DNA of 64,000 nt from a candidate division WWE3 bacterium. Its GTDB lineage: Bacteria; Patescibacteriota; WWE3; JAPLWK01. The first letter of the stretch is position 1. Each line of letters starts with the position of its first letter. A program made the translations under genes and the position numbers. Below, one piece after another: positions 6,416 through 56,292 of this stretch. The notes beneath the pieces were generated by a model. That model was not told where the DNA came from and made no database searches. It was given only the letters and a program-made list of their open reading frames with translations. The stretch spans positions 75,817 through 139,816 of the forward strand of contig JAPLWK010000008.1 in NCBI GenBank assembly GCA_026396615.1, written 5' to 3'.

Positions 6416-6418
6416 AAA

Positions 6419-6625
6419 TTACAGCACAATAACGGCCAAAACGGTTAAGGAGAGAGCGAATACTAAGTGGAAGCGGGCCACTACCCGTAAGGTTGGGTCC
6501 AAATTGGTGCCGAGCACCTCGGTCATCAAACCAATCTGACGGAGCACCATAAAAGCAAAGCCACAATATAAGGCGAGCAGAACAATGTAGCCAATTTTAA
6601 TAATTTGCCAAATATCAAAAATCAT
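6419..6625 (-). CDS. small two-TM membrane protein
   Basis: 68 aa with two hydrophobic helices, translationally coupled between the flanking genes. Confidence 0.3.
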   Translation of the reverse strand: MIFDIWQIIKIGYIVLLALYCGFAFMVLRQIGLMTEVLGTNLDPTLRVVARFHLVFALSLTVLAVIVL

Positions 6626-6629
6626 AAAT

Positions 6630-7205
6630 TTAAATAATTACCGTGGGATCGCTTAATTTAGGAGTCCCGTGCGTCCCCGCCATTAAATCAGTAATCAAAT
6701 CATGTACCTGGGCCGGATCGGGAGCCCCCTCAAACTCAAATTCCCGCTGCTCTCCTGCCGTTTGCATCGATACACTGCCGTAATTAAGCAAACTTTGAAA
6801 CACGCCATGTTGGGCGTAAGTGCAATCTTCTAAATGAGCAATTTCGGTTTCAGAAACATTCTTATTAAGTAATCCCCAAAAATCAACGTCCACAATTCTT
6901 TTTTTGGTGATTATTAACACATTAAAATACCAAATAATAAAGGTTTCTAGAGAGTAGGCAAATACAAAGAGCAGCCAAAAGATAACGCCAAAAGTAATAA
7001 AGCGGCCCGGAATAAACGGCAGTAATCGCGGCGCAAAGGGGCCAGCTACTAAAGGGACTGCAGCTAAAATTAGAATGGTAATAATACTACCCACTTGGGT
7101 AAACCAATGGCGGCGCACTAGCATTAATAAAGCTTCCCCCTCTTCTTGAGATTGAAAACTTACACTAATTGGTTTTTTAATTAACGCGGCAAAAACTTCC
7201 TTCAT
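6630..7205 (-). CDS. bacterial PH-domain (bPH_2 / YdbS-YdbT-like) membrane protein
   Basis: Two N-terminal TM helices are followed by ITKKRIVDVDFWGLLNKNVSETEIAHLEDCTYAQHGVFQSLLNYGSVSMQTAGE, which is typical of DUF304/bPH_2. Confidence 0.5.
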   Translation of the reverse strand: MKEVFAALIKKPISVSFQSQEEGEALLMLVRRHWFTQVGSIITILILAAVPLVAGPFAPRLLPFIPGRFITFGVIFWLLFVFAYSLETFIIWYFNVLIITKKRIVDVDFWGLLNKNVSETEIAHLEDCTYAQHGVFQSLLNYGSVSMQTAGEQREFEFEGAPDPAQVHDLITDLMAGTHGTPKLSDPTVII

Positions 7206-7267
7206 ATGCCCAATTATAGCAACTTCCTTTAATTATGGGAGTAAGCTAGAATGCAATCTGCTAAGTT

Positions 7268-8026
7268 ATGCAATGCGGACTCTGTAAATCCTTTAAATTT
7301 AATACTATTTTTGAGAATCAGACTAATTCAATTGTTAAATGTGTGGAATGTGGGTTAGGTTTATTAAATAAGCCACCTGCGGCAGTAGCTGAAACATATA
7401 AGTGTGATTATTTTAATGATAAAAAAACTGAAGATTACTATAAAGATTCCTTAAAGAAGTTTGCGTATGTTAAACCATATTTAAATTTAGAGTCTCGTAT
7501 TTTAGATTTCGGTTGCGCAGTTGGTCACTTTGCAGGTGTTTGCAAAAACAAGGGATACTCTGTAGCTGGATTTGATATTTCTGAATATGCTGCAAGTCAA
7601 ACGGCGACTAGCTATGATATCGAAACTAAGTCGGGGGCGTTAAATAAAGATCTCTTTGCTGAAAATTACTTCGATGTTATTACTTGTTTCGATGTAATCG
7701 AACATATTCCCAACTATATAGAAACGTTGAAAATTATAAAAACGTGGTTAAAGCCAGGTGGACACATTTTTATCACTACCCCAGATACGGAAAGTTGGGA
7801 TGCTAAGATTCTAGGTAAATATTGGTACGGTTTTACCAAAATACCACAACATATTCTTTATTTTAATAGAAATTCACTACAACGAATACTTACAGAAACT
7901 GGTTTTACGAATATTAAAATTAATCAATGGGGTTTTGTTAGGAGCCTGGGATTCTGGTTTAAAAAAAGTTTTCCGCCTTATTTTTATATTCCGATGGTAG
8001 ATATGATAGTAGTTGCTAAAAAATGA
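7268..8026 (+). CDS. class I SAM-dependent methyltransferase with N-terminal Cys4 zinc-ribbon (sugar C/O-methyltransferase-like)
   Basis: CGLC...CVECG zinc ribbon. Motif I is LDFGCAVGHFAG, and the post-I and motif II sequences include FDVITCFDVIEHIPN. Confidence 0.7.
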   Translation: MQCGLCKSFKFNTIFENQTNSIVKCVECGLGLLNKPPAAVAETYKCDYFNDKKTEDYYKDSLKKFAYVKPYLNLESRILDFGCAVGHFAGVCKNKGYSVAGFDISEYAASQTATSYDIETKSGALNKDLFAENYFDVITCFDVIEHIPNYIETLKIIKTWLKPGGHIFITTPDTESWDAKILGKYWYGFTKIPQHILYFNRNSLQRILTETGFTNIKINQWGFVRSLGFWFKKSFPPYFYIPMVDMIVVAKK

Positions 8027-8766
8027 ACTTTTTACAGGAGTTTCTAAAAATAGCCCCGTATTCTTTAGCTGTGTGGCGGGCGGGAGAGGCTGAGGCCATA
8101 AACCAAGCTTATGCTGATTTTAAACCGCAGGGCAAAATTCTAGATATTGGCTGCGGCTTTGGAGAATTCATGAGCGTTTTTAGTAAAGTTATTAACGGTA
8201 ATAAAATTGATTTGGGTGTAGATATTTGCCAATCAGATATTAATGAGGCTCTTAAAAAAAATGTTTATGAAAAAATTATCTGCTGTGACGCTAGGGACTT
8301 ACATCAAATAAAAGATAAATATAATACTGTCTTAGCCGTTAGTGTTTTAGAGCATATTAGTAATGTAGAAAAAGTATTTGACCAAGTGCAAACGGTACTT
8401 AATCCTGGTGGCTATTGCATCTTTACGGTACCTACGAATAAACTTAATTCTAAATTGTGGACTAAACTGCTCCATAAAACTTTTAAACACGTCAGCCTTT
8501 TAAGTAAAGAAGAATGGATTAAAATATCGGAAAATAGCGGTCTTACGATTAGGCAAGTAAAAGGAACAATTTCGCAAAAAGAATTAACTGCCTTTGAATC
8601 TGGCTTGATTACGGCTTTAGTAACCCAGCCCAGCAGATGGCTATTTAAAAAACGTTTACTAATATCCCCCGAGGCTAGACTAAAAACCTTCGAAAAAGTA
8701 GCTGTAGCGGCAGTTGCTGATGAAAAGATGGAAAGCAACATTTTAGTAGTTGCCCAAAAAATATGA
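8023..8766 (+). CDS. class I SAM-dependent methyltransferase (Methyltransf_11/12-like)
   Basis: ILDIGCGFGEFMS (motif I) and VLAVSVLEHISNVEKVF. It overlaps the previous gene by 4 nt (ATGA). Confidence 0.7.
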   Translation: MNFLQEFLKIAPYSLAVWRAGEAEAINQAYADFKPQGKILDIGCGFGEFMSVFSKVINGNKIDLGVDICQSDINEALKKNVYEKIICCDARDLHQIKDKYNTVLAVSVLEHISNVEKVFDQVQTVLNPGGYCIFTVPTNKLNSKLWTKLLHKTFKHVSLLSKEEWIKISENSGLTIRQVKGTISQKELTAFESGLITALVTQPSRWLFKKRLLISPEARLKTFEKVAVAAVADEKMESNILVVAQKI

Positions 8767-9683
8767 TCTGTAAAAGATGGTTTAGAGAATATAAAATAGA
8801 ATTTTCTTTATTTATAGTGGCTCTAATTTTATCGCTGTTACCAATTTTTGTTAGTGTAGTTAAAACTCCACGAGACTTTATACCAACTCTAAACAACCAG
8901 TTTTACGATATGCGTGACGTTTTTGTTTATACAGCAGGTGTAAGGCTAGGGCTAGATGGTAACTTTTTGTATAAATATAAATTTTACCCGGCTAAAGCAG
9001 AGAACCAGGTGTTAATCTATCCTGCCTTAACTATTACCGGTTTAATTCTAAAACCTCTAAGCGTATTAATCCCCAAATTTTACCTAGCTATCGGTGGGTA
9101 CCTATTACTTAAAATTATCGGGTCTGTTTTACTTTTTTTAGCAGCCCTGCACTTTTTCAAATCTTTTAATTTTAGTAAAAGAGAATCTATAATTACCACC
9201 GCTTTTTTATTGTTTTCTGGAGGCTCAGTAAGTATTGATTTCCCTGGATTATTTCCTGAGGCGGCCCTAACTATCGCCTCCTTTTCTTTAGATTTATCAT
9301 TTACACTACTGGCCGTAAGCTTTACAAAAAGGATCGTTGAACATTTCAATAAAATAAATTGCCTGTGGTTAGCGGCAGCAATACTTGGAGTAGTAGTTAC
9401 CCACCCCTATAGCCTATTACCAGTGTTATGTATAGTTATAGGAACTACTACAATTTTACTAGCCAAGAAAACTATTAAAATCCAAACAAGTGCGGGTATT
9501 TTTGCGACGTTTATACCGGCATTAAGTTACTGTGTGTATCTGTACTACAATTATTATCAATTGGATGCATTAGGTTGGGTAAAGATGTTTGATGGGGTGG
9601 CCCAATTTATGAAAACTCCACCGGTAATCGTAATAGTTATCTACCTCGGTTTACAGGGGACACTGGTGGCGGGTATATCTTAA
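8763..9683 (+). CDS. polytopic membrane protein, N-terminal part of a GT-C-like glycosyltransferase/polymerase (possibly interrupted)
   Basis: At least 8 predicted TM helices. It overlaps the upstream MTase gene by 4 nt and ends 36 nt before the next membrane-protein ORF, which is in another frame. Confidence 0.35.
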   Translation: MICKRWFREYKIEFSLFIVALILSLLPIFVSVVKTPRDFIPTLNNQFYDMRDVFVYTAGVRLGLDGNFLYKYKFYPAKAENQVLIYPALTITGLILKPLSVLIPKFYLAIGGYLLLKIIGSVLLFLAALHFFKSFNFSKRESIITTAFLLFSGGSVSIDFPGLFPEAALTIASFSLDLSFTLLAVSFTKRIVEHFNKINCLWLAAAILGVVVTHPYSLLPVLCIVIGTTTILLAKKTIKIQTSAGIFATFIPALSYCVYLYYNYYQLDALGWVKMFDGVAQFMKTPPVIVIVIYLGLQGTLVAGIS

Positions 9684-9718
9684 AAAATATTAGAATTACC
9701 AAATTTTCCCAGTTAATA

Positions 9719-10273
9719 ATGTTTGTATGGTTGGGTTCGGCTTTTATTACAGCTTACCTACCAAGCAATACACAAAAGGCGCAAATAAAAAGCCTAGGTT
9801 TAGTATTGGTCGTTATGGCGGGTGCGGCCTTTGCCAATATAATTAGTAGTAAGTTAACTAAAATAAACTGGAAAATATTAAGCCCAATCTTACTAATTTT
9901 TCTAGGAGGCTATTTTATTAATACAACTTTCCCAATTTATAGAATACTTAACCAAAAGACCCCAGATAAAATCAGTTACATCTCAAAAAATAGATTAATG
10001 GCTTTAGATTGGTTAGACAAACACGAAAATAACAAAAGTAGAACGGTATTATCAACCGAAAAAGAAATGGGCAGCTATGTACCCCTAATAACAAATTTAA
10101 CTACATTAAATAGTTATGCATTATTTGAAAGTGCGGAAATTATAAAGGACAATTCTAAAGTTATACCCGATTATGTAATCGAAATTAGCGGCGGTAACAT
10201 TATAAAATCTACGGAATATGGGGCAGTTTACCAAAATCCGGAGGTAACTATTTATGAAAATACCAAAATTTAA
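9719..10273 (+). CDS. membrane protein with C-terminal extracytoplasmic domain (possible C-terminal part of the preceding GT-C-like gene)
   Basis: Two TM helices followed by a soluble domain. Its size and position suggest a frameshifted continuation of 8763..9683. Confidence 0.3.
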   Translation: MFVWLGSAFITAYLPSNTQKAQIKSLGLVLVVMAGAAFANIISSKLTKINWKILSPILLIFLGGYFINTTFPIYRILNQKTPDKISYISKNRLMALDWLDKHENNKSRTVLSTEKEMGSYVPLITNLTTLNSYALFESAEIIKDNSKVIPDYVIEISGGNIIKSTEYGAVYQNPEVTIYENTKI

Positions 10274-11813
10274 TAAACCAATCTTTACTGAGGCACTGTG
10301 GATTGGTTTAACAGCAGCCATTTTATTTTTCGTATTTCTTAATATAGCTCTTAAATACTTAGATCCCGATTTAGGTTGGCATTTAGTAATTGCCCAAAAT
10401 TTCTTAGAAACCGGCTTCTTCCCCAGTGTAGATGTGTACTCTTTTGCTATTAAAAACTTTCCTTGGGTAGTGTTTGAATTTCACCTCTCTAACCTAATGT
10501 ACTTAATTTATAAGCAAATTAGTTATTTAGGGTTAGCGGTAGTTTTTTCGGGAATAACAGCCGCCTTACTCACTTTACATATTTATTTAACTCGCCAAAT
10601 ATTTAAAATACGCCTACTAACTATCCTAATTTTCGGTGGCGTTTTAATAATCGGCACCTTTAGCACTTTTGGGATTCGCACCCCGGTATTTTCGATTTGG
10701 GCCAACATAATCCTTTTTTGGTTGCTGTGGGATCTACTAAAAGACAAACCTCGATTACTTACTAGATTATCGTTGATGGGACTATTTTTAATCTGGGCTA
10801 ATTGCCACCCCAGCTTTTTTGTAGGAGTGGCCACTTTAGTGATTGCGGTAATCTATAAAACTCTGCGCCGCAAAACAGTTAGTTTAGCCGACATTACCAC
10901 CGTCATCACTACCGGCTTAATAACACTGCTGAACCCTTACGGCATTCGACTATGGTGGGAAGCTCTGGGGCACTTTTTGCCCACTAGTAGCTTAATGCAT
11001 ACATATATTAGAGAGTGGCAATCGGTGTTTAAAATGTTTCCAGTGGATTTACTGGGGCTAATTACTCTCTTTTTCGTACTGCTGGTGTTTATAGAAAATT
11101 TTAAGAAACTGTGGAAAAACTACCCCGCTCATTTTATCGTCGCTGTAATCTTTTTAGTGGGTACTTTTATGGCCACTCGTAATATTGGCCTCTTAGCTAT
11201 TTGGGCCTTACCCTTAGTCTTAGCTACCCTAAACAATAGTGTAAAGGTGGCTCTTCCGCCAAAACATTATCATTTAATTAGGGTGCTCCAAGGCGCCCTA
11301 GCCATTTTAATAGTTAGTGAATTTGTCAGCTTATTAGCAATTAATTGGTGCACTAACTTTCTGCAAACTGGGGCCAGTGGCTACCCTTCAAGTAAAGCTT
11401 TAGACGAAGTTAAGCAATTAACTAATCAGGGTGAGTGGTTATACAATCCTTATGATTGGGGTGGCTATTTAGACTGGCACTTTAAAGGGACTCCTCAAGT
11501 TTTTATTGACGGACGAATGCCCGCCACCTGGTTTAATAAAGATAATTTCCCGTTTAAAGATTATGTGGCCATGTATAGCACTAAGGGTAAAGGGGAAATT
11601 TTCGCCAAGTATGATTTTACGGTGGCGATAGTTAAACCAACTATAGCGTCCAGTCTTGACCCTTTTAATCGATTTTTAATTGGGGGAGCGGCGGGCGAAG
11701 CTAAACTGAACGCCGAGGCGGAAAGATTATCCGTAAAAACTTGGCTGGAGGGGCAACCGAATTGGAAAAAAGTTTATAAAGATGACACAGCTGTAATATT
11801 TGTCAAAAAGTAA
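10254..11813 (+). CDS. polytopic membrane protein, GT-C-fold-like (ArnT/PMT/YfhO-like) with C-terminal soluble domain
   Basis: About 12 TM helices, then an approximately 150-aa hydrophilic C-terminal domain (YNPYDWGGYLDWHFKG...). Confidence 0.4.
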   Translation: MKIPKFNKPIFTEALWIGLTAAILFFVFLNIALKYLDPDLGWHLVIAQNFLETGFFPSVDVYSFAIKNFPWVVFEFHLSNLMYLIYKQISYLGLAVVFSGITAALLTLHIYLTRQIFKIRLLTILIFGGVLIIGTFSTFGIRTPVFSIWANIILFWLLWDLLKDKPRLLTRLSLMGLFLIWANCHPSFFVGVATLVIAVIYKTLRRKTVSLADITTVITTGLITLLNPYGIRLWWEALGHFLPTSSLMHTYIREWQSVFKMFPVDLLGLITLFFVLLVFIENFKKLWKNYPAHFIVAVIFLVGTFMATRNIGLLAIWALPLVLATLNNSVKVALPPKHYHLIRVLQGALAILIVSEFVSLLAINWCTNFLQTGASGYPSSKALDEVKQLTNQGEWLYNPYDWGGYLDWHFKGTPQVFIDGRMPATWFNKDNFPFKDYVAMYSTKGKGEIFAKYDFTVAIVKPTIASSLDPFNRFLIGGAAGEAKLNAEAERLSVKTWLEGQPNWKKVYKDDTAVIFVKK

Positions 11814-11905
11814 TCGATATTCGGATACATTCGGAATCAATTCGGATTAATGAACGCTCATTTCATTCGCTATCAATTTCACTAGGCTTTCAATTGTAGG
11901 ATGTC

Positions 11906-13633
11906 TCACTTCACTTCAAACCAAGTGCTGTAAATCCAATCTTTCTCCGGGCTACGAACGTTAAAGGCGTAGCGAAAGCGGATGCCAGTGATCTCACCAC
12001 TATCGATTGACCGGTTGGACCCTTCGGCTTTAACCCATTTGACTCGGGAACTGCTGCCTCCCATCGTCTCCACAGACACTGATTTAACGGCTTCGATTGG
12101 CGTCTTCCCCTCACTCTTCAGCATCGAGCGGACATCTTCCATTGACGTTTTGCTGCTGACCTTATCCAAATCCGACGGACTTAAAAGAGCGGTATTTAAA
12201 ACGTCACCCATATCAATTTGTCCAATCTGGGTCCCCTCAGAACTATCCTTTTTTGGCGGAAAACTTTGGGTTTTCCAGGAATTACTCATGAGGGCACTCC
12301 AATTATTGTAGGGCGACATGGTGTCGTTAAAGTCTGTTGACCGAAGATAGGGATAAGCATCGTTAATAGAGCCTGAATCTTTATACTGCCGCGTATCGCT
12401 ATTAAAAGCAAACGACGGTGTGTCGCCAATAGAATCGGTGTGCGGCCCGGAAGTCGAGAAGTAAAAAGCCCGAATTGGTTCGCCTGAATAAACCATAATT
12501 TTACCCCGAGTTTTATCGGCGGCGTCTTTTTTGGCCGTCCCGCCAATGTAAACTTGACAAGCTTGAGTGGTACAAATGGAACTGTTATTTATGGCATAAG
12601 TGCGAGCGGCAATGATTTGGACCCGATCCATGACGGCGGCAGCATCACTATTAATTGTCCGCCACACCGGATCGGTTTCGCCAATTCCGGCTAAATACTC
12701 GTCCTCAAAGTTCATGCTTCCATAACCCTCGACGTTAATCGAGTCTTTAGAGACGGTCTTAAAGTCGATATCGTGATAATAAAATTTAAGAATCCTTTCT
12801 TCGTCCCAACCTTGGGCGGCCAACATAAAAGCGCCCCATTGGCTCATGCCCACTCCATGCTCCGTCCCGTAACCACCAATGCGCCACGAGGGAGCACCGG
12901 AGGCATTTGGAGTATTTGGGCGGCCGGACCCAGATTCTTTAATATTCTGAACGGCCGACTGCTGCCAACTCATTTGACTGCTAATCTCGGCACTTAAGTC
13001 CGACAGTTTCTGACCAAGAATGGCTTCCTGAGCGGCATATTGTGACAAACGAGCCGAGGCTTCATTCGCCTGATTTTTAAGTTTGCTTTGCAAATTAGCT
13101 AAGGCTTGTTGTTGAGCCAGCAATTGATTTTTAATGGACAGGGCTTCCGCTTTGTTGGCCTCAAAATTAGTGATCTCGTCGTTAAGATTGGTAACAGTGG
13201 CGCGAACGTTGTTTAAAGTGACTTTAAAATAGATTAGACGCTCCGGCCATTCCTGCCAGGAATTAGAAGAAAATAAGAGGACCAAAGGAATGACTTCGCC
13301 CCGTTTGTAATAATCCAAAACCGCCGCGTCTCGCAAAGTTTCCTGTATTGCAATTTTGCCTTTGCGATCAGCCAAACTGGCTTCAATTTGAGTTAAAGTT
13401 GACAGCGTGGCCGTAATTTTAGCTTGCACTGCCGCAATTTGAGAGTCGGTTAAGCCCAGTTTGGTAGACAAATCTTTTAGTTCCACCGCCAAGTTGTCTT
13501 TATCGGATTTGAGTTTAGACAGTTGAGTGGCGGTACTTTGATAATCATCCAAAATTGAAGCCGAGGCAACATTTCCGTTGACAGAAAGCGCCAGAGACAC
13601 TAGGATGATGGGAATGAAGAGAAACCACCGCAT
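11906..13633 (-). CDS. SpoIID/LytB-domain protein with signal peptide and long coiled-coil region
   Basis: GYGTEHGVGMSQWGAFMLAAQGWDEERILKFYY is the SpoIID/LytB signature. The N-terminus has EnvC-like coiled coils. The likely true start is MRWFLFIPIILVSLALS (about 13633); the longer ORF extension to 13804 was rejected. Confidence 0.55.
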   Translation of the reverse strand: MRWFLFIPIILVSLALSVNGNVASASILDDYQSTATQLSKLKSDKDNLAVELKDLSTKLGLTDSQIAAVQAKITATLSTLTQIEASLADRKGKIAIQETLRDAAVLDYYKRGEVIPLVLLFSSNSWQEWPERLIYFKVTLNNVRATVTNLNDEITNFEANKAEALSIKNQLLAQQQALANLQSKLKNQANEASARLSQYAAQEAILGQKLSDLSAEISSQMSWQQSAVQNIKESGSGRPNTPNASGAPSWRIGGYGTEHGVGMSQWGAFMLAAQGWDEERILKFYYHDIDFKTVSKDSINVEGYGSMNFEDEYLAGIGETDPVWRTINSDAAAVMDRVQIIAARTYAINNSSICTTQACQVYIGGTAKKDAADKTRGKIMVYSGEPIRAFYFSTSGPHTDSIGDTPSFAFNSDTRQYKDSGSINDAYPYLRSTDFNDTMSPYNNWSALMSNSWKTQSFPPKKDSSEGTQIGQIDMGDVLNTALLSPSDLDKVSSKTSMEDVRSMLKSEGKTPIEAVKSVSVETMGGSSSRVKWVKAEGSNRSIDSGEITGIRFRYAFNVRSPEKDWIYSTWFEVK

Positions 13634-13967
13634 TGGTTTGATTATACCAACTATTTTGGCTTCCCAATTTTTACTGGCTCCCAAAGTTTTGGCCGCGGAT
13701 ATTGCCACTAACGACATCGGTAGTTTTGTGGGCGGTATCGCAGTCGCGGCAGTGGGTATTGGCGGTGGTGTCGCTCTACTTTTAATAATTATTGGTGGCC
13801 TCATGTTTTCTTTAAGTCGTGGCGATCAGGATAAAGTTCAAAAGGCTAAAGATATGATCACCAGCGCTATTGCAGGGCTGCTCTTAATAATCTTCGCGAC
13901 TGTAATTCTTCGAGTCATCGGCGTTGATATCTTTGGTTTACCGGGAATGCCAGTCTTTAATTTCTAG
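13614..13967 (+). CDS. TrbC/VirB2-like pilin-family small membrane protein (paralog 1)
   Basis: Signal peptide MKRNHRIGLIIPTILASQFLLAPKVLAAD, then two hydrophobic helices separated by SRGDQDKVQKAKD. No class III prepilin motif, so this is not a type IV pilus pilin. Confidence 0.5.
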   Translation: MKRNHRIGLIIPTILASQFLLAPKVLAADIATNDIGSFVGGIAVAAVGIGGGVALLLIIIGGLMFSLSRGDQDKVQKAKDMITSAIAGLLLIIFATVILRVIGVDIFGLPGMPVFNF

Positions 13968-13969
13968 TT

Positions 13970-14920
13970 ATGAAATTTTTAAAAGTCTTTTTTTTGTGTT
14001 CGATTATCTCTGCAGCTCTAGTATTTTCAAGTCGACCTGTTTTGGCAGCTGCCGGAGACTGCGGAGCGGGCTCCTGTCCGGCTAATTATACCTGCCAAGC
14101 GACATCCAATCCGATATTTTGTTGCCCAGTTGCTACTCCGACTCTTACCGCTTGTGGCACCAGCTGCTGCGAAGTCGCTAATTGCTATCATCCGGCAATA
14201 GGTTTACCAACCTGCGTTAATACCAACACCAGTAACTTAAGCACCTGTGGAAGTAATCTCTGTGTCACACAAATTTGTTGTGATACAGGCACATTAGATA
14301 ACTGTGTGCCATTACCAGCTGCCGGTTGTAGTCAGCGTCAACGGGTAAACGATGGCTGCGATAGCGACGGCGTTACCTGTCACCTAAAGCCTACCGACGC
14401 TTCGGTCCCCGCGCGGTTCATCACCGCGGCCGGTTCTGAGTGTGGTAATCACTTATGTGACCCCGGTGAGGCGTGTGAGTTTTCGATTGTCGCCGGAGGC
14501 GTACCTTTTACCTGCGATGGCAATGGCGGCACATCACCACTACCTGCTGGACAAACTTGCAACGCCACCTGTACACAAATTATTTCCAACGGCCAAGGTG
14601 GAGCGATTAGCGGCAATCCCTCAACGTATCATCTTGACACCACTGCCATCGGGGTCACCCCTAAATTCACAACGCTTGGTGGCATTACTTCTTTTGTCGT
14701 TAAGACAATGGTCGGGTTGGCTGGCGTGGCTTTTATGATCATGTTTTTGATCGGCGCCTTTAAGTTTGTGACTTCCCAAGGCGATAAAGCGGCTGTAGAG
14801 AGTGCCAAAGGCACGATTACCAGTGCTTTTATTGGCGTGGCCTTAACGGCGGCCTTATTTGCTATAATGACGCTGCTACAGAACGTTTTTGGCGTTTCGT
14901 TACTAAACATCACGACCTAA
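13970..14920 (+). CDS. fusion protein: signal peptide, a Cys-rich extracellular domain of about 200 aa (about 40 Cys), and a C-terminal TrbC/VirB2-like pilin domain (paralog 2)
   Basis: The C-terminal 75 aa (VGLAGVAFMIMFLIGAFKFVTSQGDKAAVESAKGTITSAFIGVALTAALFAIMTLLQNVFG) are homologous to the neighbouring pilin paralogs. Confidence 0.5.
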   Translation: MKFLKVFFLCSIISAALVFSSRPVLAAAGDCGAGSCPANYTCQATSNPIFCCPVATPTLTACGTSCCEVANCYHPAIGLPTCVNTNTSNLSTCGSNLCVTQICCDTGTLDNCVPLPAAGCSQRQRVNDGCDSDGVTCHLKPTDASVPARFITAAGSECGNHLCDPGEACEFSIVAGGVPFTCDGNGGTSPLPAGQTCNATCTQIISNGQGGAISGNPSTYHLDTTAIGVTPKFTTLGGITSFVVKTMVGLAGVAFMIMFLIGAFKFVTSQGDKAAVESAKGTITSAFIGVALTAALFAIMTLLQNVFGVSLLNITT

Positions 14921-14923
14921 GTT

Positions 14924-15238
14924 ATGAACTTAATTACTAAAGCCTACGCTGTTGTGATTGATCCTGGAATGATTGGGGTTAAAAATATTACCCCGGAATC
15001 GGGAATTATGATGGTCGTTAAAGCTCTAATTGGCGCTTGCGGCTTTGGCGCTTTTATTTTTTTAATAATCGGTGGCGTCAAATTTGTGGTCTCAGCGGGA
15101 GACAAAGGGGCCGTGGAAAGTGCTAAAAAGACAATTACCTTCGCCGTCATCGGCCTGGTCCTGGCCGCGGCCGCTTTTGCAATTGCCTCCTTGTTACAAA
15201 ACGTATTAGGGATTAATATTCTAAATGTAACTATCTAA
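14924..15238 (+). CDS. TrbC/VirB2-like pilin-family protein (paralog 3)
   Basis: ALIGACGFGAFIFLIIGGVKFVVSAGDKGAVESAKKTITFAVIGLVLAAAAFAIASLLQNVLGI. Confidence 0.5.
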   Translation: MNLITKAYAVVIDPGMIGVKNITPESGIMMVVKALIGACGFGAFIFLIIGGVKFVVSAGDKGAVESAKKTITFAVIGLVLAAAAFAIASLLQNVLGINILNVTI

Positions 15239-15262
15239 AAACAGGAGGTGACTTAATTTATT

Positions 15263-15620
15263 ATGTTTTTAATCAAAGATCTATTAGTAAAAGCTGCGTA
15301 TGCGGCACCAATTGATATTTTTAAAACTGCAGACGCTACCAGCGTTGACTTAAAAATTCAGAATGTTCAGACAGTAGTTTCTACCGGTATTAAAGCCCTA
15401 ATCGGAGCCGCCGGTTTACTGTTCTTTGTGATGTTAGTCTGGGGTGGTATTCAATTCGTCACTTCTGGCGGCGATAAAGCTCAAGCTACCGCCGCTAAAG
15501 ACCGAATTACTCACGCTTTATTGGCATCGTAATTGTGGCAGCCGCTTTCGCTATTGCCACGTTGCTCCAAAACGTCTTAGGAATTGGAATTACCGATTAC
15601 AACATTAGTAATGCTTACTA
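15263..15620 (+). pseudogene. TrbC/VirB2-like pilin paralog 4, disrupted by a 1-nt deletion frameshift near 15518. It is a near-identical tandem duplicate of paralog 5
   Basis: nt 15401-15588 are identical to 15775-15963 except that a single C is missing. The ORF stops at 15532, but the out-of-frame downstream sequence encodes the conserved C-terminal helix (IVIVAAAFAIATLLQNVLGIG). A good RBS (AGGAGGTGA) is present. Confidence 0.5.
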
Positions 15621-15642
15621 AGGGAGGTGAATTGTTATAATT

Positions 15643-15996
15643 ATGAATTTTTTAAATATAATCTCTGGTAAAGCTTTCGCTGAAAGTGTATTTGTAACCG
15701 GAAATAAAGCCACCGCTGTAGGCTTAAATATCTCCGACACCGGACTTCTGGTGTCCACAGCTATCAAAGCCTTAATCGGAGCCGCCGGTTTACTGTTCTT
15801 TGTGATGTTAGTCTGGGGTGGTATTCAATTCGTCACTTCTGGCGGCGATAAAGCTCAAGCTACCGCCGCTAAAGACCGAATTACTCACGCTCTTATTGGC
15901 ATCGTAATTGTGGCAGCCGCTTTCGCTATTGCCACGTTGCTCCAAAACGTCTTAGGAATTGGAGTTACCAACTTCACGATCCAACAGGCTTACTAA
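15643..15996 (+). CDS. TrbC/VirB2-like pilin-family protein (paralog 5)
   Basis: ALIGAAGLLFFVMLVWGGIQFVTSGGDKAQATAAKDRITHALIGIVIVAAAFAIATLLQNVLGIG. RBS GGGAGGTGA. Confidence 0.55.
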   Translation: MNFLNIISGKAFAESVFVTGNKATAVGLNISDTGLLVSTAIKALIGAAGLLFFVMLVWGGIQFVTSGGDKAQATAAKDRITHALIGIVIVAAAFAIATLLQNVLGIGVTNFTIQQAY

Positions 15997-16059
15997 TCAA
16001 ACGTTTCGCCCGGTAGCTAGGCAATCTAGCTACCGAAGCATCGTTAGATTTTTTAGTAT

Positions 16060-16368
16060 ATGGCTATATGCACAATTGGTGATCCACCCACTATAGATCA
16101 ACTGGGCCCCTGCTTTGTAAGCATTATTAAGCTAGTGGTAGGTTTTGCTGGGGTGGCTACCGTAATTGTGTTTTTAATTGGCACCGTTCAGTACATCACT
16201 TCCCGCGGTGACAAAGAAGGCGTTACCGCGGCTAAGGGTACCCTCACCTACGCCATTATTGGCCTGGTGGTGGTCGCCGTCGCCTTTGGGCTAGTCAGTC
16301 TTATTGACCGAACTATTCTTGGTGGAACCAACACTCTTCTCAACTTCGACGTTCCCAGTATTCACTAA
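16060..16368 (+). CDS. TrbC/VirB2-like pilin-family protein (paralog 6, most divergent)
   Basis: LVVGFAGVATVIVFLIGTVQYITSRGDKEGVTAAKGTLTYAIIGLVVVAVAFGLVSLI has the same architecture as the other paralogs. Confidence 0.45.
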   Translation: MAICTIGDPPTIDQLGPCFVSIIKLVVGFAGVATVIVFLIGTVQYITSRGDKEGVTAAKGTLTYAIIGLVVVAVAFGLVSLIDRTILGGTNTLLNFDVPSIH

Positions 16369-16409: not shown

Positions 16410-16444
16410 TTCAGATTGATAATTAATTAGTTTATACTTACCTC

Positions 16445-19400
16445 ATGCCCAAGCGAGTGTCGATAATATTGGAATTTTCATTATTATTAATTGCAATTAT
16501 TATTCTAAAACCAACCCCCGCCTTTGCCGCTGCTCCGGATCCCGTGGCCTGCTTCACCAACGAAGATCCCACCTTTGGGGGCGTTACTCGAGGCAATTCT
16601 ACCAGCTTTAATGTTCTATTGAACATGAAAATCACCGATTTCTACTGCGCCGCTCCTAACTGGCCCGTCGCTTCCGTTCTTGAAGGCAACGATGCCACGC
16701 ATATGGATGTTGGCACTAACTGCCCGGCGGCCAATGATCCGGCAGTCCTGGCTAAAATCGTGGCCCAACTAAAAAGCCAAATCGAGAATGTTTCCTTAAT
16801 CCCAGGTGCCATGACCAATCCCAGCGTTCTTAGTCAAGCCAATTTTCAGGGCGATACTACTTGGACGTTACTGCGACCGCCTAGTGATATTACTCCCAAC
16901 AAAGTCAACAATATTACCGGCCAAACCGCTCTTAATACAGTGGGCACTTCCAAGATTTACTACGCCGCCTGCACCAACGTGCCCGAGGTGGGACCGGTCT
17001 GGTTTTCAATGGCTAAAGACGTCCCAGCTCCTCAGGGCAAAGTCCTACCCTCGTATCGTAAAGAAGCCGCCGCCTCTTTTTACCTGCAAAATTATTTGAC
17101 CCAAGTGCCGGGTGACGATCCAATCATTAAAGAGCTTAAAAAGGAAACGCCGGTTTTTAATGACAATACTACCTCCGACCTTCTTCCCTTTCCAAAACTT
17201 AGCTTTCAGTTAGCCTCTCGAAAAATTGCCGAAAGCGATTATTTAATTTACTGGAAACTATGCGCCAAAAAGGGACCTGTGGACACAGTCAAAAAAAATA
17301 TTTCATGCCAACTTAGTAATTTTATTACTGACATCGAGCACACCGATGTTAGCGGTGCGAAAAGTCTGGTCGCCGAAATTCCTAACGATGCTTGGGGCAA
17401 GAACACCGGCGATGACTTCACTTGCTTTACCACCGGCGATTTCGACACCCATCCTCTTAAAGTGACAGCAACCCCAGGCAGCAGCTACCCGCTTTCCGTC
17501 AAACTCATTGGCACGCCGATTGACGAAAACGTTTGTCAGAATAATGCGCAGCTCGATAGTGCCGTTTATCTCGACCCCAATAATCAATTGGCATACAGCG
17601 GTTATTCGACTACCCCTCACGTGGCCTTCTGTAATGGCGTCAACTCAACAGTCGTCAACAATACCAGTCAGAGCGTGTGTATTGGTGGAGACTGTCATGT
17701 GACGGCGATTGCCAAATTTTTTAACGACGCTTCCGCTAAAATCAGTGCTGTTTTTGACAATTGGATTCATCAACTCACTCCTACTACTACTTGGGGTGAC
17801 GTAAATCCTGATTCCGCAGCGTCCTGTCAAAAGACAGCGGAAGATATTTGTAATGGCCCCAAAGGTCAAGGCGCTTCTGATAATCTAATCATCACCCAGT
17901 CCACGGACTTCAATTGGATTCAGGTGGATCCGGCCGCCAAACCGGTCGACAAAATAATTAAGGTTTTCGTTACCAACAATAGTAAAAGGGATGCCACCCT
18001 TAATGTTTACAGCCAAGTTCTGGTCACTAGCGAAAGATCGCTCCCGGTAACAATTACCACCTCCAATGCCGCGGGAAGCCAAAATAGTCCTCAAATTGCC
18101 GTTTACGGAAACACTATTTACTGGAATGGCCTGATCGTCCCCGCAAATGGCGTCACTACTGAACTTGATTATCACGTTAGCGTGACTGCAATAAACTCCG
18201 GAACTATTTCAGCTACTTCTGGTGTCAGTGGTGATATTTATAAAACTGTCACTTTTTATAGTGACACTAACTTTGCTTGTCAGAAAGTCGCTGGAGTTGG
18301 TACAAATTCCTGTGATCCTAAAAATAATGACGCCGACTGTAGCGCTAAGCACCTAGCATGTAATAACGGCACCGGTATCTGTGAGTTAGTAAACGGCGCC
18401 GGTACTAATACTTGTTTAACTAATTCCCAATGTAAAGACGACAAGCGACATCTTGACTGTGTAGGTAACGCCTGTGTGGCTGTGCAGGGGACTGGGGTAG
18501 ATAATTGTAATCGTTTGGCGAGTTGTAATACTACTACCCATACCGGTTGTAGCCTCGATTCGGCAAACCCAACTTGCGCGAGTTTTACTTATGTTGGTCC
18601 TAATAAACCAACCAATAATTGCAGTATCAGTGGTAATAGCGGATGCGACGGTGCTAACTCCTCAAGTTTTCATATGGAGTGCAGCAGCGTCGGTAAACCC
18701 GAGCCTAGAGATGTTTCGCAGCCCGAATCGACTTCCACGCAGTCCGGCTTAATTACCGTTTCCAGTACCAACGCTTCTGACGATGAAAACTTATGTGTGA
18801 AGATTGCGAAAATCGTCTGCTATATAACCACTATGCCGTCCCTAATGAGCGGTTACTCCTACACCCAACCTCTAGAGGTTAAAGTTTATCCGTACCCGGA
18901 GGCTTCATATACTCAAGGCATAGACACGCAAGCCGCCAGCCCTAAGGATGGTCTTTTTAATCTCTTCTACGCGCCTGGACAAGATAACAAAATCGCCGCT
19001 TTAAGCGAAAAGGATGTTGACGCCAAAGCCGGATTAAATACTAATATAAACGGTAACAGCCCCGCCACCGACGCTTCGATTAAAGGCAGCCAACAGACCC
19101 TGTCGCCTTTGAAGTATCTGCAGAAAAATGCCCTCTGCCCTCCCGGTCAAGAGGCAACCTGCCCCGATATGCCCCAAACTGTCAACGAGGCGATGCCAAC
19201 TGACGGGAGCATTCCACCTCCCGATACTCCACCGCTACCAGGACCAGTTGTTCCCGGCGCCAACGTTGGCTTCAGCGTTCCAGCTTGCACCGGAGGCAAT
19301 GACGTGGCCATTTCCCAGCGTTCGACCTACACCCAAAATATATTAGCCCAAGCCGCAGCAGCCGAGGGCGTTCCAGTGAGTTTATTAACAGCTATTTTGA

Positions 19401-19852
19401 CCGTCGAAAGCGGTAACGACGCTCTAATCTCCGCCAACGGGACCGCCCCCGTCTGCGTTACTTCTGTTTGTAGTGCTCGCGGCTGGTTTCAAATCACTAG
19501 CGGCTATCAAAATGTGGATTGTAGTGAGTGCAGCGCTTGGTGCTGTGATTACAATAATGACAGCATTAAAGAAGCGGTGTGCTTAGAATCTAGAAGCGCT
19601 TTTGATCCCCCCGGAAATTTTGACCTCTGCAACCCAGCCCAGTCCGCCATCGCCGCTGCTAAAGTTTTAAAGGCTAAGATGGGTGTCGATGGTACACACG
19701 TGTGGACGATCGATGATGCCTGTGTAGCTGCTGCTCGCTACTTTGGAGCGGATAGCTCAGCCTGTGAAACCAGTGGTGGTTATTATCCGCGCCTTGCTAA
19801 CTGTACTTATGGCGGATTTGTAAAAAAGTTTGTGAATATTACCGGACTTTAG
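16445..19852 (+). CDS. giant secreted Cys-rich protein (1135 aa) with C-terminal lytic transglycosylase (SLT, VirB1-like) domain
   Basis: Signal peptide. Three tandem G-x-G-T-N-x-C-x5-6-C modules lie at aa about 620-690. A Pro-rich linker (PPPDTPPLPGPVVPG) follows. The C-terminal LTAILTVESGNDA...GWFQITSGYQ matches the SLT catalytic E-S motif and the GLMQ-type motif. Confidence 0.55.
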   Translation: MPKRVSIILEFSLLLIAIIILKPTPAFAAAPDPVACFTNEDPTFGGVTRGNSTSFNVLLNMKITDFYCAAPNWPVASVLEGNDATHMDVGTNCPAANDPAVLAKIVAQLKSQIENVSLIPGAMTNPSVLSQANFQGDTTWTLLRPPSDITPNKVNNITGQTALNTVGTSKIYYAACTNVPEVGPVWFSMAKDVPAPQGKVLPSYRKEAAASFYLQNYLTQVPGDDPIIKELKKETPVFNDNTTSDLLPFPKLSFQLASRKIAESDYLIYWKLCAKKGPVDTVKKNISCQLSNFITDIEHTDVSGAKSLVAEIPNDAWGKNTGDDFTCFTTGDFDTHPLKVTATPGSSYPLSVKLIGTPIDENVCQNNAQLDSAVYLDPNNQLAYSGYSTTPHVAFCNGVNSTVVNNTSQSVCIGGDCHVTAIAKFFNDASAKISAVFDNWIHQLTPTTTWGDVNPDSAASCQKTAEDICNGPKGQGASDNLIITQSTDFNWIQVDPAAKPVDKIIKVFVTNNSKRDATLNVYSQVLVTSERSLPVTITTSNAAGSQNSPQIAVYGNTIYWNGLIVPANGVTTELDYHVSVTAINSGTISATSGVSGDIYKTVTFYSDTNFACQKVAGVGTNSCDPKNNDADCSAKHLACNNGTGICELVNGAGTNTCLTNSQCKDDKRHLDCVGNACVAVQGTGVDNCNRLASCNTTTHTGCSLDSANPTCASFTYVGPNKPTNNCSISGNSGCDGANSSSFHMECSSVGKPEPRDVSQPESTSTQSGLITVSSTNASDDENLCVKIAKIVCYITTMPSLMSGYSYTQPLEVKVYPYPEASYTQGIDTQAASPKDGLFNLFYAPGQDNKIAALSEKDVDAKAGLNTNINGNSPATDASIKGSQQTLSPLKYLQKNALCPPGQEATCPDMPQTVNEAMPTDGSIPPPDTPPLPGPVVPGANVGFSVPACTGGNDVAISQRSTYTQNILAQAAAAEGVPVSLLTAILTVESGNDALISANGTAPVCVTSVCSARGWFQITSGYQNVDCSECSAWCCDYNNDSIKEAVCLESRSAFDPPGNFDLCNPAQSAIAAAKVLKAKMGVDGTHVWTIDDACVAAARYFGADSSACETSGGYYPRLANCTYGGFVKKFVNITGL

Positions 19853-19885: not shown

Positions 19886-21397
19886 GTGAAACCAGCCACA
19901 ACTACCGCCAAAATAATAGCCCTTATCACCCTTACCGCCTTTATCACCCTTATTAACACCACCCCTACAAATGCGGAGACGATAAGCTGCGGTGAAGTGG
20001 TGCCTACCACTGGTGCTGGGGCCGCTAAAAGCCCTTCCCAATATTTTGAAGTTTCAGTACCGGCCAGCTTTGGTATGTCTGAAGAAGATATTAGAAAGTC
20101 AGCCGAAGAAAAGTTAACCCGAGAAATTACCGTGGCTCAAGATAAATACTCAACTCCCAAAGCCGCCAGTCTCTCCCAAAAATATGAAGACATGCGCTTT
20201 GTGTTGCAGCCGCCAATGAATCCCACCGTCAACAGCTCTGCGCAAGGCATGAGTAAGGCCACGGAATATATAACCGCCTGCGAAGAAGGCACTACTAATT
20301 GGTTTTATATTGAGAGCCAGGGCATTGAAGGGCAAATTAGTAAGGATTTCACCCTGGCCGATAAGGCCACACAGCCCCTCAATGATTATTTAATTCATCT
20401 ACCGCTGTCGCCAACCAGAGTTGAAGAAGTAAATTCCAGCCAAGGGGCCGCCGCTCACTATTTTTTGGACCAACCCGACAGCGGAATTCCCAAGATGTCA
20501 CTGATTCTGCGACCAAGGATCGAAGACACTGATAGTTATAACGTTTATTGGGATCTGTGCGTGACACCTCCCAACCCCTACGACGCGAGTAATAGGGTCA
20601 GTTGCCCTTTTGAAGAGTTTGTGACCGAATTATCGACGAGTACCGGTGACACGCAGTCGATCGTTCCTGGAGCCTATACCAGCTTTGACGGCTCGATCGT
20701 TAACTGGGGAAATAGCCAAAGTGCCATGTGTGTAAGTTCCGAGACGCTAAAACTATCACCCTTTAAAGTTGCTAAAGGCCAAGGAGTGAGCGTGACGGCT
20801 AAGATTTTCGGTCGGCCGAGTGAAGCCAAAAGAGATACTTGCGTTGATAACGCCGCCGAAGTAACAGCCAACGCCTTTGCCTCGATTGATGGTGTGACCA
20901 AAAGTGAACATAGTCAAGCAGCCACCAAAGTGATGTGCCCCGGCGTCTATACCCCGGCCGGCCGGATTTTTAAACCGGAAGACCACTGCATTGCTGGTGT
21001 TTGTAAAATCGACCCGGCTATTCACACTGTTCAATCAATTACCGGAAACCTATGGGCCTGGCTTCAAAGTGCCCTTAGTAACTGCAACTCCGTCGCCGAG
21101 TGTATTGCCAAAATCCTCGTCCAAGACACTCGTAAATACTATGTTTATTTTTATAACGCTGGGGGCAATTACGGAGCCATCAATAGCAGTGCTACCAATA
21201 CCGGCGTTCAGTCCGGTTTTAATCAGTTATTTCGCCCACCTCAAGATGAATTTTCCAGTATCTTTGCCGAGGAACCAGCCGGCGATAACAACCACTTAAG
21301 CCACAACACGCCAATTAAGTCGGACTACACCAAAGTGCAGACGTATTTAACCCCACCGGGACAAAGTTTCCTCACAGATAAATCAGAAATGCGTTAA
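19886..21397 (+). CDS. secreted protein, paralog of the N-terminal domain of the 16445 protein
   Basis: Signal peptide. The shared motifs YNVYWDLCVTPPNP...VSCPFEEFVTE match LIYWKLCAKKGP...ISCQLSNFITD, and SLILRPR matches TLLRPPS. Confidence 0.45.
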   Translation: MKPATTTAKIIALITLTAFITLINTTPTNAETISCGEVVPTTGAGAAKSPSQYFEVSVPASFGMSEEDIRKSAEEKLTREITVAQDKYSTPKAASLSQKYEDMRFVLQPPMNPTVNSSAQGMSKATEYITACEEGTTNWFYIESQGIEGQISKDFTLADKATQPLNDYLIHLPLSPTRVEEVNSSQGAAAHYFLDQPDSGIPKMSLILRPRIEDTDSYNVYWDLCVTPPNPYDASNRVSCPFEEFVTELSTSTGDTQSIVPGAYTSFDGSIVNWGNSQSAMCVSSETLKLSPFKVAKGQGVSVTAKIFGRPSEAKRDTCVDNAAEVTANAFASIDGVTKSEHSQAATKVMCPGVYTPAGRIFKPEDHCIAGVCKIDPAIHTVQSITGNLWAWLQSALSNCNSVAECIAKILVQDTRKYYVYFYNAGGNYGAINSSATNTGVQSGFNQLFRPPQDEFSSIFAEEPAGDNNHLSHNTPIKSDYTKVQTYLTPPGQSFLTDKSEMR

Positions 21398-21497: not shown

Positions 21498-22508
21498 TTA
21501 TTGCAACGCCTTGACGAAATATACAGCCGTCGTCGACCGCCCATCCGCCAACGTCACCGTCCCACTAAACGCATATACCGGTTCCAAATACGTACCTCCC
21601 TTACGAGTTTCCAGATACTCAAGTTTAACGTCAGTGAAACTGGCGGCATTAATTCCCGCCACCATCGCCAAACTATCTCCTACAATTCCCAAAGTCGCGA
21701 GAGTCGCCCGTCCAGCCTTTAAGTCTTCCAAAGCCGTTTCGATCGTCTTTAAAGGATAAACCCCAAAACTACCGTCACCATTTTGCAGCAAATGATAGTA
21801 AAACTTACCGGAAATTAGACCGTCATTTTGCCAACCAAAAGTTATCAGGGTTTCGTCACCAGGCAAACTGGTTACCGGCACATTATTAACGATTCGCAGC
21901 ACATTAAAATCGCCGGTTGGCGTATTTAAAGGCTGGTCGAAACTTAAATCAGGATAATTTAAATCCAGTGATTTTAATAGATTCTGCAGCACTTCGGTCT
22001 TTGAAGAAGCCTCCCCGCCAAATGACGCGATATCGCGAGGCTGCGCCAAGTTAAAAATAAAGCCATCGCTTACGGAATCGTAAAATAGATAATTGCCTTT
22101 TTCCTGCCACGTCTGACCCCCAAAAGTCGGTTTTGACTTAACCGTAAAACCTAATTTGACCGCCAATTTGTCTAGGGTGGACGGGGTTAAAACAGCTGTT
22201 TGCCCAAAGCGATAGACTCGAGCGGTCGCTGGAAACTTTAAAGTCGCTGTATCAATAAAGCTCTGCATGGCTGAAGGAGTGGCTCCCGGAATCGGGCTCG
22301 GTGGTAAAGAAATGACCGGCAGCGAGCCGAAAGTTTGGCTAACAGGCTCGCTAGGCACGGTAGTTGAAGTTGCCGGGGTCGTTGGTGCCGAGCTGCGCGA
22401 GGCCAACAAAAAGATGATTAAACCAATCCCGACAGCGCTAATAATGGCAATGGCCAGGATTTTATTATTCGCATAAAACTCTTTAAAAGCGGCAATATAT
22501 TTATCCAT
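21498..22508 (-). CDS. bitopic membrane protein (N-terminal TM anchor, Pro/Thr-rich linker, extracytoplasmic domain)
   Basis: TM ILAIAIISAVGIGLIIFLLA. Its start codon abuts the stop of the upstream 1178-aa gene. A VirB8/PrgL-like role is pure speculation. Confidence 0.35.
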   Translation of the reverse strand: MDKYIAAFKEFYANNKILAIAIISAVGIGLIIFLLASRSSAPTTPATSTTVPSEPVSQTFGSLPVISLPPSPIPGATPSAMQSFIDTATLKFPATARVYRFGQTAVLTPSTLDKLAVKLGFTVKSKPTFGGQTWQEKGNYLFYDSVSDGFIFNLAQPRDIASFGGEASSKTEVLQNLLKSLDLNYPDLSFDQPLNTPTGDFNVLRIVNNVPVTSLPGDETLITFGWQNDGLISGKFYYHLLQNGDGSFGVYPLKTIETALEDLKAGRATLATLGIVGDSLAMVAGINAASFTDVKLEYLETRKGGTYLEPVYAFSGTVTLADGRSTTAVYFVKALQ

Positions 22509-56289: not shown

Positions 56290-56292
56290 AAA

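Follow-up and report, generated by a model that had tools for sequence, protein, structure and literature searches.

We analysed a 64-kb stretch of DNA (hereafter the window) from a metagenome-assembled genome (MAG) of the candidate division WWE3 (Patescibacteria), in which six consecutive open reading frames (ORFs) on the plus strand, here called p1 to p6, span positions 13614-16368 in the ORF list. With a probability of roughly 60%, this locus is a pilin operon of a chromosomal system resembling a type IV secretion system (T4SS), composed of five conserved and non-interchangeable types of PF18895 protein that are kept in a fixed order. The original prediction, made from the DNA letters, had correctly placed six consecutive same-strand genes here and took them for VirB2/TrbC-like pilins of a multi-copy locus serving antigenic or functional variation. 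The fixed set of five types found in WWE3 favours a heteromeric machine of major and minor subunits over a library of variants.

Membership of the array in the T4SS_pilin family (Pfam PF18895) was judged by the gathering score of 26.6 bits. Five of the six proteins scored above it (p1, 39.2 bits; p3, 31.9; p4, 29.3; p5, 41.1; p6, 38.0), and p2 reached 25.4 bits over aa 235-296, marginally under it. A hidden Markov model (HMM) of the family, built from the window genes and their orthologues, recovered all six paralogues at E-values of 1e-26 to 1e-40 (p2 at 4e-37), with p5 being the best scorer in both models. When the six-frame translation of the 64 kb was searched with the family HMM, nothing beyond the six was found below E = 0.7. 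Chance is thus no explanation for the array, which is real, and no extra or silent copies exist within the 64 kb; the original prediction had proposed a search for such copies in the genome.

Hydropathy and alignment bore out the loop motif that had been described between two hydrophobic helices: [ST]xGD(x)K...AK is common to all paralogues, and SxGDK...A[AK] is invariant in the alignment. The sharing of AVESAK by p2 and p3 was likewise correct, as was the divergence of p1 and p6, the most divergent members in the alignment. AlphaFold2 (AF2) folds p5 into a helical hairpin (H31-65 and H70-104; core pLDDT >90). The uniform layout of 90-120 aa with a signal peptide in every member did not hold. 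At 316 aa, p2 is far longer, and p4 is an 89-aa product with one helix, its in-frame helix 2 being lost owing to a deletion described below. An N-terminal hydrophobic signal segment is present by hydropathy in p1 and p2 only (the hydrophobic segments of p1 are aa 7-28, 35-70 and 79-115), while p3, p4, p5 and p6 begin with short, polar, non-hydrophobic sequences; p3 has its two hydrophobic helices only, and p6 starts with a conserved MA[IV]CTI..DPP, invariant in type 6, and carries a second conserved Cys before helix 1. The leaders of types 3 and 4/5 are short, conserved and non-hydrophobic and end in an A-x-A-like sequence (MNLITKAYA, MFLIKDLLVKAAYA and MNFLNIISGKAFA in p3, p4 and p5; MQELLKLIAKPxxAA in orthologues). 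Such unusual leaders suggest an unusual route of processing or insertion, which might involve, for example, YidC-dependent insertion or a dedicated peptidase. A holin identity was rejected: five paralogues gave no PHROG match at E ≤0.01, and the neighbouring genes are chromosomal housekeeping and envelope genes without phage context.

Syntenic contigs from related organisms were compared with the window; L001, L004 and L005 carry the whole locus, and L002, L003, L006-L009 and L020-L023 carry part of it. The relatives share the order SpoIID-like gene (minus strand), p1, p2, p3, one p4/5-type gene, p6, and genes for secreted proteins of ~1150 and ~460 aa, followed on the opposite strand by a ~330-aa gene and a ~1180-aa M23-peptidase gene. 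The order p1-p2-p3-p45-p6 with a single p45 gene was found in L001-L005, L009/L020 and L021-L023. A second gene of the p4/5 type is absent from all nine syntenic relatives, and the window has six genes because this type was duplicated in its lineage. The alignment and tree that had been proposed were made with 17 sequences: in the neighbour-joining (NJ) tree each window paralogue clusters with its positional orthologues (identities in Table 1), resolving five orthologous clades, and identity between types in the same alignment is 18-48%. Only two things set the repertoire apart from that of the relatives, namely the duplicated p4/5 type and a p2 ectodomain of different size. Given that each type has its own positional orthologue in every syntenic relative examined, the types are old and have been maintained individually rather than turned over. 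Old, individually kept types in a fixed order are the pattern of specialised subunits, not of a repertoire prone to turnover.

In each type the core of the hairpin is conserved, and both terminal tails diverge. The first ~40 residues of p5 share 33-36% identity with its orthologues and the C-terminal tail 38-46%, compared with 72-81% for the core. Published structures of F and T pili place the hairpin termini on the outside of the fibre and the loop along the lumen. If the fibres were built like F or T pili, the variable tails would be their exposed parts.

Table 1. Coordinates of the array, its sequence features and the associated genes in the window, with protein identity to orthologues
Feature	Position	Strand	Description	Identity to orthologues
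p1	13614-13967	+	117 aa, type 1; classical N-terminal signal peptide; most divergent type	60-89% (89% L007, 60% L005)
p2	13970-14920	+	316 aa, type 2; ectodomain-pilin fusion	57-80% (anchor)
p3	14924-15238	+	104 aa, type 3; no signal peptide	51-77% (77%, 57%, 51%)
p4	15263-15532 as ORF, remnant to 15621	+	89 aa; first type-4/5 copy, frameshifted	55-62% (type 4/5)
p5	15643-15996	+	117 aa; intact type-4/5 copy; candidate major subunit	55-62% (type 4/5)
p6	16060-16368	+	102 aa, type 6	61-80% (80% L006, 61% L001)
Conversion tract, p4 copy	15399-15588	+	190 nt; matches p5 copy except for a 1-nt deletion after 15517	
Conversion tract, p5 copy	15773-15963	+	Counterpart of 15399-15588	
Stem-loop between p5 and p6	16011-16035	+	Perfect 10-bp stem, from RNA fold; U-run 16049-16054	
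1135-aa secreted Cys-rich protein	16445-19852	+	Signal peptide; NT141_02070; syntenic orthologues of 1175 and 1146 aa in L001-L003	
503-aa secreted protein	19886-21397	+	Syntenic 459-aa gene in relatives	
1178-aa membrane protein	22508-26044	-	DUF11, C-terminal M23 peptidase; transmembrane segments; syntenic 1184-aa orthologue in L001 and L002	
T4SS core cluster	54406-58403	-	About 6 kb from dnaA (48286-49641), 38 kb from the array	
VirB4-like ATPase	54406-56289	-	Pfam P-loop_TraG, AAA_10	
231-aa protein	56293-56988	-	Between the VirB4-like and PrgI/VirB3-like genes	
PrgI/VirB3-like protein	56985-58403	-	Pfam PrgI; also a CarboxypepD_reg domain	

The p4 and p5 genes had been described as nearly identical, which is true of a 190-nt core but not of the N-terminal ~40 codons. 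There the two proteins are 33% identical, differing from each other as much as from the orthologues of other species. Outside the tract (~135 nt on the 5' side and the final ~35 nt), identity falls to about 33-53%. At third codon positions of the core, p4 and p5 agree at 98%, compared with 36-67% for orthologues (whose proteins are 81-91% identical) and 27-34% for other pairs of paralogues. Selection on the protein cannot produce 98% identity at third positions, and the tract pattern thus indicates recent gene conversion or recombination between the copies. Gene conversion between duplicated pilin copies does occur, therefore, and of the recombination between copies for which the original prediction had proposed to look, a signature is seen for this pair only.

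Within the tract, p4 lacks one base relative to p5 after position 15517 (GCTCTTATT to GCTTTATT), and its frame ends at 15532. Its second helix and tail can still be read in another frame to 15621 (frame 2 of 15500-15625 closes with GIVIVAAAFAIATLLQNVLGIGITDYNISNAY and a stop codon), and the family HMM also matches this shifted tail (15499-15618, E 3e-12). GenBank annotates the 89-aa product of p4 as NT141_02055, and p5 and p6 as NT141_02060 and NT141_02065.

We next weighed the possibility that the array is a variation system, in which the pilins are interchangeable and recombination between copies alters the exposed surface to suit different host strains or to evade phage or host defence. A survey of Patescibacterial pilin arrays suggested that the paralogues might aid adaptation to different host strains, by analogy with the virB2 genes of Bartonella and Anaplasma (Quinonero-Coronel et al. 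2025, Microb Genom, PMC12102498). Anaplasma phagocytophilum and Bartonella carry several tandem, divergent pilin genes beside one secretion system, and surface variation has been proposed for these genes; these are, however, true PF04956 VirB2 proteins of pathogens facing adaptive immunity, whereas the orthologously conserved types found here point to specialisation. The sharp tract of identity in otherwise diverged genes demonstrates that recombination between copies happens, and evolution is much faster in the tails and in the p2 ectodomain than in the core. Yet the tract covers the conserved core and not the variable tails, so that conversion homogenised the former without exchanging the latter, and the p4/p5 pair is the only evidence here that favours the variation idea. 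All five types are orthologous and positionally kept in all the syntenic relatives examined. In the cassette systems of Neisseria (pilE/pilS) or Anaplasma (msp2), a single expression site is accompanied by silent copies that are promoterless and partial; none of this kind was found elsewhere in the 64 kb, and every copy in the array has its own start codon. All six genes point in the same direction, with the p2 start 2 nt after the p1 stop, the p3 start 3 nt after the p2 stop and the other gaps measuring 21-63 nt, and this tight spacing with coupled starts would imply co-expression.

Invertible promoter elements or a phase switch were rejected as well, as no notable inverted repeats were detected and the deletion in p4 lies outside any homopolymer or repeat, which argues against slipped-strand switching. 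Moreover, in the array of Southlakia epibionticum (SEML1_0014-0019, six PF18895 genes), all six pilins are required, with transposon sequencing (Tn-seq) classes of growth-defect/essential/essential (Wang et al. 2023, Cell, PMC10633639 Table S1). Cassette-based variation is thus largely contradicted by orthology, gene order and the lack of silent copies in the window, and with five orthologous types in a fixed order and a tight operon, the claim of antigenic or functional variation for the locus as a whole is mostly unsupported; we regard a variation system as unlikely. Decidedly unlikely is a narrower version, in which the p4/p5 pair and the modular, lineage-specific Cys-rich head of p2 would together form an active mechanism for varying what the fibre displays, with the core kept by repeated conversion and the N-termini kept different. 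The p4 frameshift would in that case represent one variant switched on or off, and an epibiotic bacterium of the candidate phyla radiation (CPR) could alter what its host-contact fibre displays, with effects on host range or on the evasion of phage or host defence, while the fibre could still polymerise.

Under the favoured reading of a pilin operon with five specialised types, the subunits would differ in abundance and role. A strong Shine-Dalgarno sequence is found only ahead of the p4/5-type genes (AGGAGGTGA before p4, GGGAGGTGA before p5); the same restriction to this type is seen in L001, L005 and L009, and p6 has no obvious Shine-Dalgarno sequence. Based on this and on its closeness to the family consensus, the p4/5 type, the sole type with a strong ribosome-binding site, would be the abundant major subunit, and p1, p3 and p6 would be low-abundance minor subunits that prime, cap or anchor the fibre or conduit. 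The model for such a division of labour comes from VirB5, from type IV pili (PilA with FimU-PilVWXE) and from the pseudopili of type II secretion systems (T2SS; GspG with GspHIJK). In the latter two, an operon encodes small divergent paralogues that share one assembly core; one pilin is made at a high level, the rest are kept as separate orthologous types, and a larger adhesive domain is found on one of them, as proposed here. The analogy is functional only, as type IV pilins have an unrelated fold and machinery: their signal peptide is of class III, and their one helix, at the N-terminus, carries a globular head. Following the p4/p5 duplication, the two cores would have been recently homogenised by conversion while the N-termini were kept different, and p4 would then have acquired, or is recorded with, its frameshift.

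The spacer between p5 and p6 can form a perfect stem-loop (Table 1). The predicted fold of 15990-16062 has a free energy of -24.9 kcal/mol (z -5.3), and 0 of 200 shuffled sequences were as stable. The stem-loop was not called by the terminator scan, and with a U-run that begins 14 nt past the stem it does not qualify as a canonical terminator; its effect may be to attenuate or stabilise the mRNA downstream of the candidate major pilin gene. The close relative L006 has another hairpin at this position, and more distant relatives have no spacer. As support for a major p4/5 type, this stem-loop is weak.

The second gene of the array departs most from the common layout. A signal peptide is followed in p2 by an ectodomain of ~205 aa with 25 Cys (about 14048-14650) and by a C-terminal pilin hairpin (aa 235-316; about 14672-14920). 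Among close relatives the ectodomain is rich in insertions and deletions while the pilin anchor is 80% identical, and in L021 the ectodomain is almost lacking. A search of 1.84 billion representative proteins with the ectodomain returned no homologue except itself and one short repeat match, a 33-residue Cys module that is repeated in a DUF11 surface protein. These features make p2 a natural candidate for a host-contact or host-recognition module, and we propose that it would show its fast-evolving, Cys-rich ectodomain outside the cell in this role. Since p2 falls just below the Pfam threshold, at the thresholds of the published survey it would probably have been counted as an intervening 'non-pilin gene'. 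One 'non-pilin' gene within such arrays is accordingly a pilin with a fast-evolving ectodomain.

The window is chromosomal (smpB, fpg, recF-like, dnaG, rpoD, pnp, infB, nusA, dnaN, yidC, dnaA, tpiA, dnaJ and dnaK) and includes a T4SS core cluster (Table 1). Its VirB4-like ATPase scores 383.9 bits with NF045971, 'VirB4-like conjugal transfer ATPase, CD1110 family' (cutoff 325). This VirB4/VirB3-like module near oriC would power assembly of the array's products, probably helped by the secreted proteins encoded downstream of the array, one of them SLT-like, and by the M23 peptidase protein.

The best outside relative of the array proteins is the NCBIfam model NF045849, 'Mbov_0395 family pilin-like conjugal transfer protein' (curated cutoff 40 bits). 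Scores of p1, p2, p3, p5 and p6 were 18.3-31.4 bits (E 1e-7 to 1e-3) over ~60-70 of the 80 model positions, all below the cutoff, which indicates a distant relationship and not membership. This similarity fits the MPF_FATA affinity of the window VirB4, which scores 266.6 bits with the Mbov_0397 model, and hints that a pilin-like protein may be native to the monoderm lineage and not an import from diderm systems. According to the literature, T4SSs of the MPF_FATA/Gram-positive kind lack VirB2-like pilins; the similarity to NF045849 suggests that the Patescibacterial pilins may have a monoderm relative. As in the window, the pilin of the Mycoplasma integrative and conjugative element (ICE) described by NF045849 accompanies a VirB4 of the same broad monoderm lineage; to judge by the model name only, proteins of that family are apparently encoded by single genes on mobile elements, whereas the array is chromosomal.

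Homology to classical VirB2/TrbC was not demonstrated. In a scan of the six paralogues with PF04956 (gathering score 27.9 bits), only p1 matched, below that score (20.1 bits, E 7e-4). Five of 38 family members reached E <0.01 with this model, all sub-threshold, and unrelated transmembrane families reach similar E-values. An hhalign comparison of the 38-sequence family alignment with seven plasmid VirB2/TrbC proteins, alphaproteobacterial only, gave a probability of 0.6% (E 0.1, 17 columns), and a profile search of all PDB sequences found no pilin, the matches being spurious (E ≥0.15). Foldseek with the p5 model found no match in the PDB at E ≤0.001; generic helical hairpins dominate (E ≥1), and the conjugative pilus of Aeropyrum (8dfu) ranks 16th, with a TM-score of 0.64 on the target and E 3. 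The description as VirB2/TrbC-like pilins thus stands in the sense of the PF18895 'T4SS pilin' family, a family characteristic of Patescibacteria, in a genome with VirB4- and PrgI/VirB3-like genes, and not in the sense of classical VirB2/TrbC. With the classical VirB2/TrbC/TraA pilins of the T-pilus, RP4 and F pili, the array shares protein size, two hydrophobic helices, a short basic loop and a VirB4-powered machine, and the Sec-type signal peptides of p1 and p2 resemble theirs. It differs from them in lacking the virB1-virB2-virB3-virB4 order, in the four of six members without such a leader and in its monoderm host, the classical pilins belonging to diderm T4SSs; it also has multiple paralogues where a classical T4SS has one major pilin and VirB5.

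The lack of statistically supported similarity to any solved conjugative pilin bears on a second alternative, namely that the six proteins are not pilus subunits but two-helix membrane or envelope proteins (a channel, a stator-like ring or a wall conduit), 'pilin' being an inherited Pfam name. The four paralogues without a cleavable signal peptide would agree with it, as would the unrelated transmembrane families matching as well as TrbC and the reported general absence of pili from monoderm T4SSs (PMC12102498). This seems quite unlikely to us, given that in other Patescibacteria genes of this family consistently sit in clusters with those for VirB4, VirB6 and VirB3, that the matches to NF045849, although sub-threshold, are consistent and reach E 1e-7, that sub-threshold TrbC matches recur in the family as noted above, and that the large extracellular Cys-rich domain of p2 fits display on a fibre.

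The p4 deletion may reflect very recent pseudogenisation or an assembly error, and no further metagenome contig matched when the exact DNA sequence spanning the frameshift was searched for. That the near-identity of the p4/p5 cores, the frameshift or both arose by metagenome assembly, from a collapsed repeat consensus or an indel error, is very unlikely: the sequence does come from a MAG, an exact repeat of 190 nt is longer than the usual k-mers and its copies could have been merged, and the sole difference within the tract is a 1-nt indel, but an assembler cannot invent the unique junction (15589-15642) that the tandem p4-p5 arrangement requires, nor the distinct upstream regions, and even with a few differences collapsed the identity would be far above the 27-67% seen at third positions elsewhere.

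Both this kind of array and the variation hypothesis are already in the literature, and the locus adds no new kind of system. Of 3,035 Patescibacteria genomes searched with PF18895 and PF04956, 383 assemblies yielded 441 'VirB2 arrays', which hold 2-11 pilin genes each, reach their highest abundance in Microgenomatia and Saccharimonadia and have a mean within-array identity of 25% (maximum 54%); the T4SS often lay close to dnaA (PMC12102498). Like the published Patescibacterial arrays, including SEML1_0014-0019 and the 'Sec secreted array' of TM7x, the array in the window consists of tandem same-strand genes for divergent PF18895 paralogues (~100-190 aa in those arrays), with a chromosomal T4SS whose MPF_FATA-like VirB4 and PrgI/VirB3 lie near dnaA and no relaxase or coupling protein noticed in the window. 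Its six genes are within the published size range and, with gaps of 2-63 nt, agree with the published definition of an array as at least two pilin genes on one strand that are adjacent or have a single gene between them. It differs in its WWE3 host, in lying outside the T4SS cluster, in containing one ectodomain fusion and one frameshifted member, and in sequence identity: the mean within the array is ~37%, and p4 and p5 are 72% identical overall and 100% in the core, above the published maximum, because of the converted pair. In other Patescibacteria, the loci that we sampled have 4-11 tandem copies (L011, 11; L010, at least 7; L013 and L015, 6 each). In the one genetically tested Patescibacterium, the T4SS and the pilin array are essential for epibiotic life. 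The five-type set, the p2 ectodomain and the gene conversion give concrete predictions for cultivable relatives.

Single ORFs with two or three tandem PF18895 domains also occur in other Patescibacteria, as do pilin domains that lie inside, or close, stop-to-stop frames of 365-668 aa (L028, 1300-3185; L030, 3072-4136; L035, 446-1255; L014 and L016-L018). It thus seems common for the PF18895 hairpin to be fused or to carry an ectodomain.

Downstream of the array, the 1135-aa secreted protein is rich in Cys-knot-like repeats. Its C-terminal ~180 aa match the SLT domain (PF01464) at E 0.0028 and 17.6 bits, under the cutoff of 21.3, and a conserved Glu and GWFQIT, which are lytic-transglycosylase-like motifs, are present in the protein and its orthologues. 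The C-terminal domains of the orthologues gave no SLT match in Pfam, a single-sequence AF2 model of the domain was unusable (pLDDT 41), and homologue searches gave no match to the C-terminal fragment, while the full-length protein matched only itself. It is a possible VirB1 analogue. The 503-aa protein encoded next to it shares with it an N-terminal domain of ~250 aa (BLASTP E 3e-7, 23% identity over 249 aa). For the 1178-aa protein, the M23 peptidase domain would be consistent with cell-wall remodelling. A polytopic membrane protein of 460 aa (43746-45128), encoded adjacent to dnaN (45145-46284) and without a Pfam or NCBIfam match, could be the missing VirB6-like component.

Several points weigh against a T4SS-like pilin operon with specialised subunits. 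Neither in sequence nor in fold do the proteins significantly match conjugative pilins of solved structure, and no pilus made of PF18895 proteins has been observed in any Patescibacterium (PMC12857230). As the array lies 38 kb from VirB4, its link to the T4SS comes from family precedent and not from adjacency. The evidence for major and minor roles consists of Shine-Dalgarno strength and similarity to the consensus. The VirB1-like role is but a lead, as the SLT score is sub-threshold, the orthologues have no Pfam match and the model is unusable. Finally, the Tn-seq essentiality of every Southlakia pilin gene could reflect polar effects.

Promoter and terminator scans of the window gave counts not above shuffle expectation. 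Two sigma-70-like matches lie close to start codons: TTGACA-17-TAGGAT (13578-13606) ends 7 nt before the ATG of p1, and TTCAGA-17-TATACT (16410-16438) ends 7 nt before the ATG of the 1135-aa gene; both would imply leaderless mRNAs. At its 5' end (ATG 13614), p1 overlaps head-to-head by ~20 nt with the SpoIID-like gene on the minus strand (likeliest ATG 13633, MRWFLFIPII...; region 13559-13640), so that the signal-peptide-coding start of each gene is antisense to the start of the other. A head-to-head overlap of 14 nt was also called in L005. Taken at its longest, the SpoIID-like ORF on the minus strand reaches 13804 and would cover 190 nt of p1; this version is probably too long.

Upstream of the array, window positions 6000-12000 have a GC content of 0.35-0.39, compared with 0.44-0.48 around them. 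This segment, between the 541-aa and SpoIID-like genes, encodes a bPH_2 protein, two class I methyltransferases and polytopic membrane proteins; in the relatives just two genes, of 521 and 508 aa, take its place, and it may be an inserted or replaced segment.

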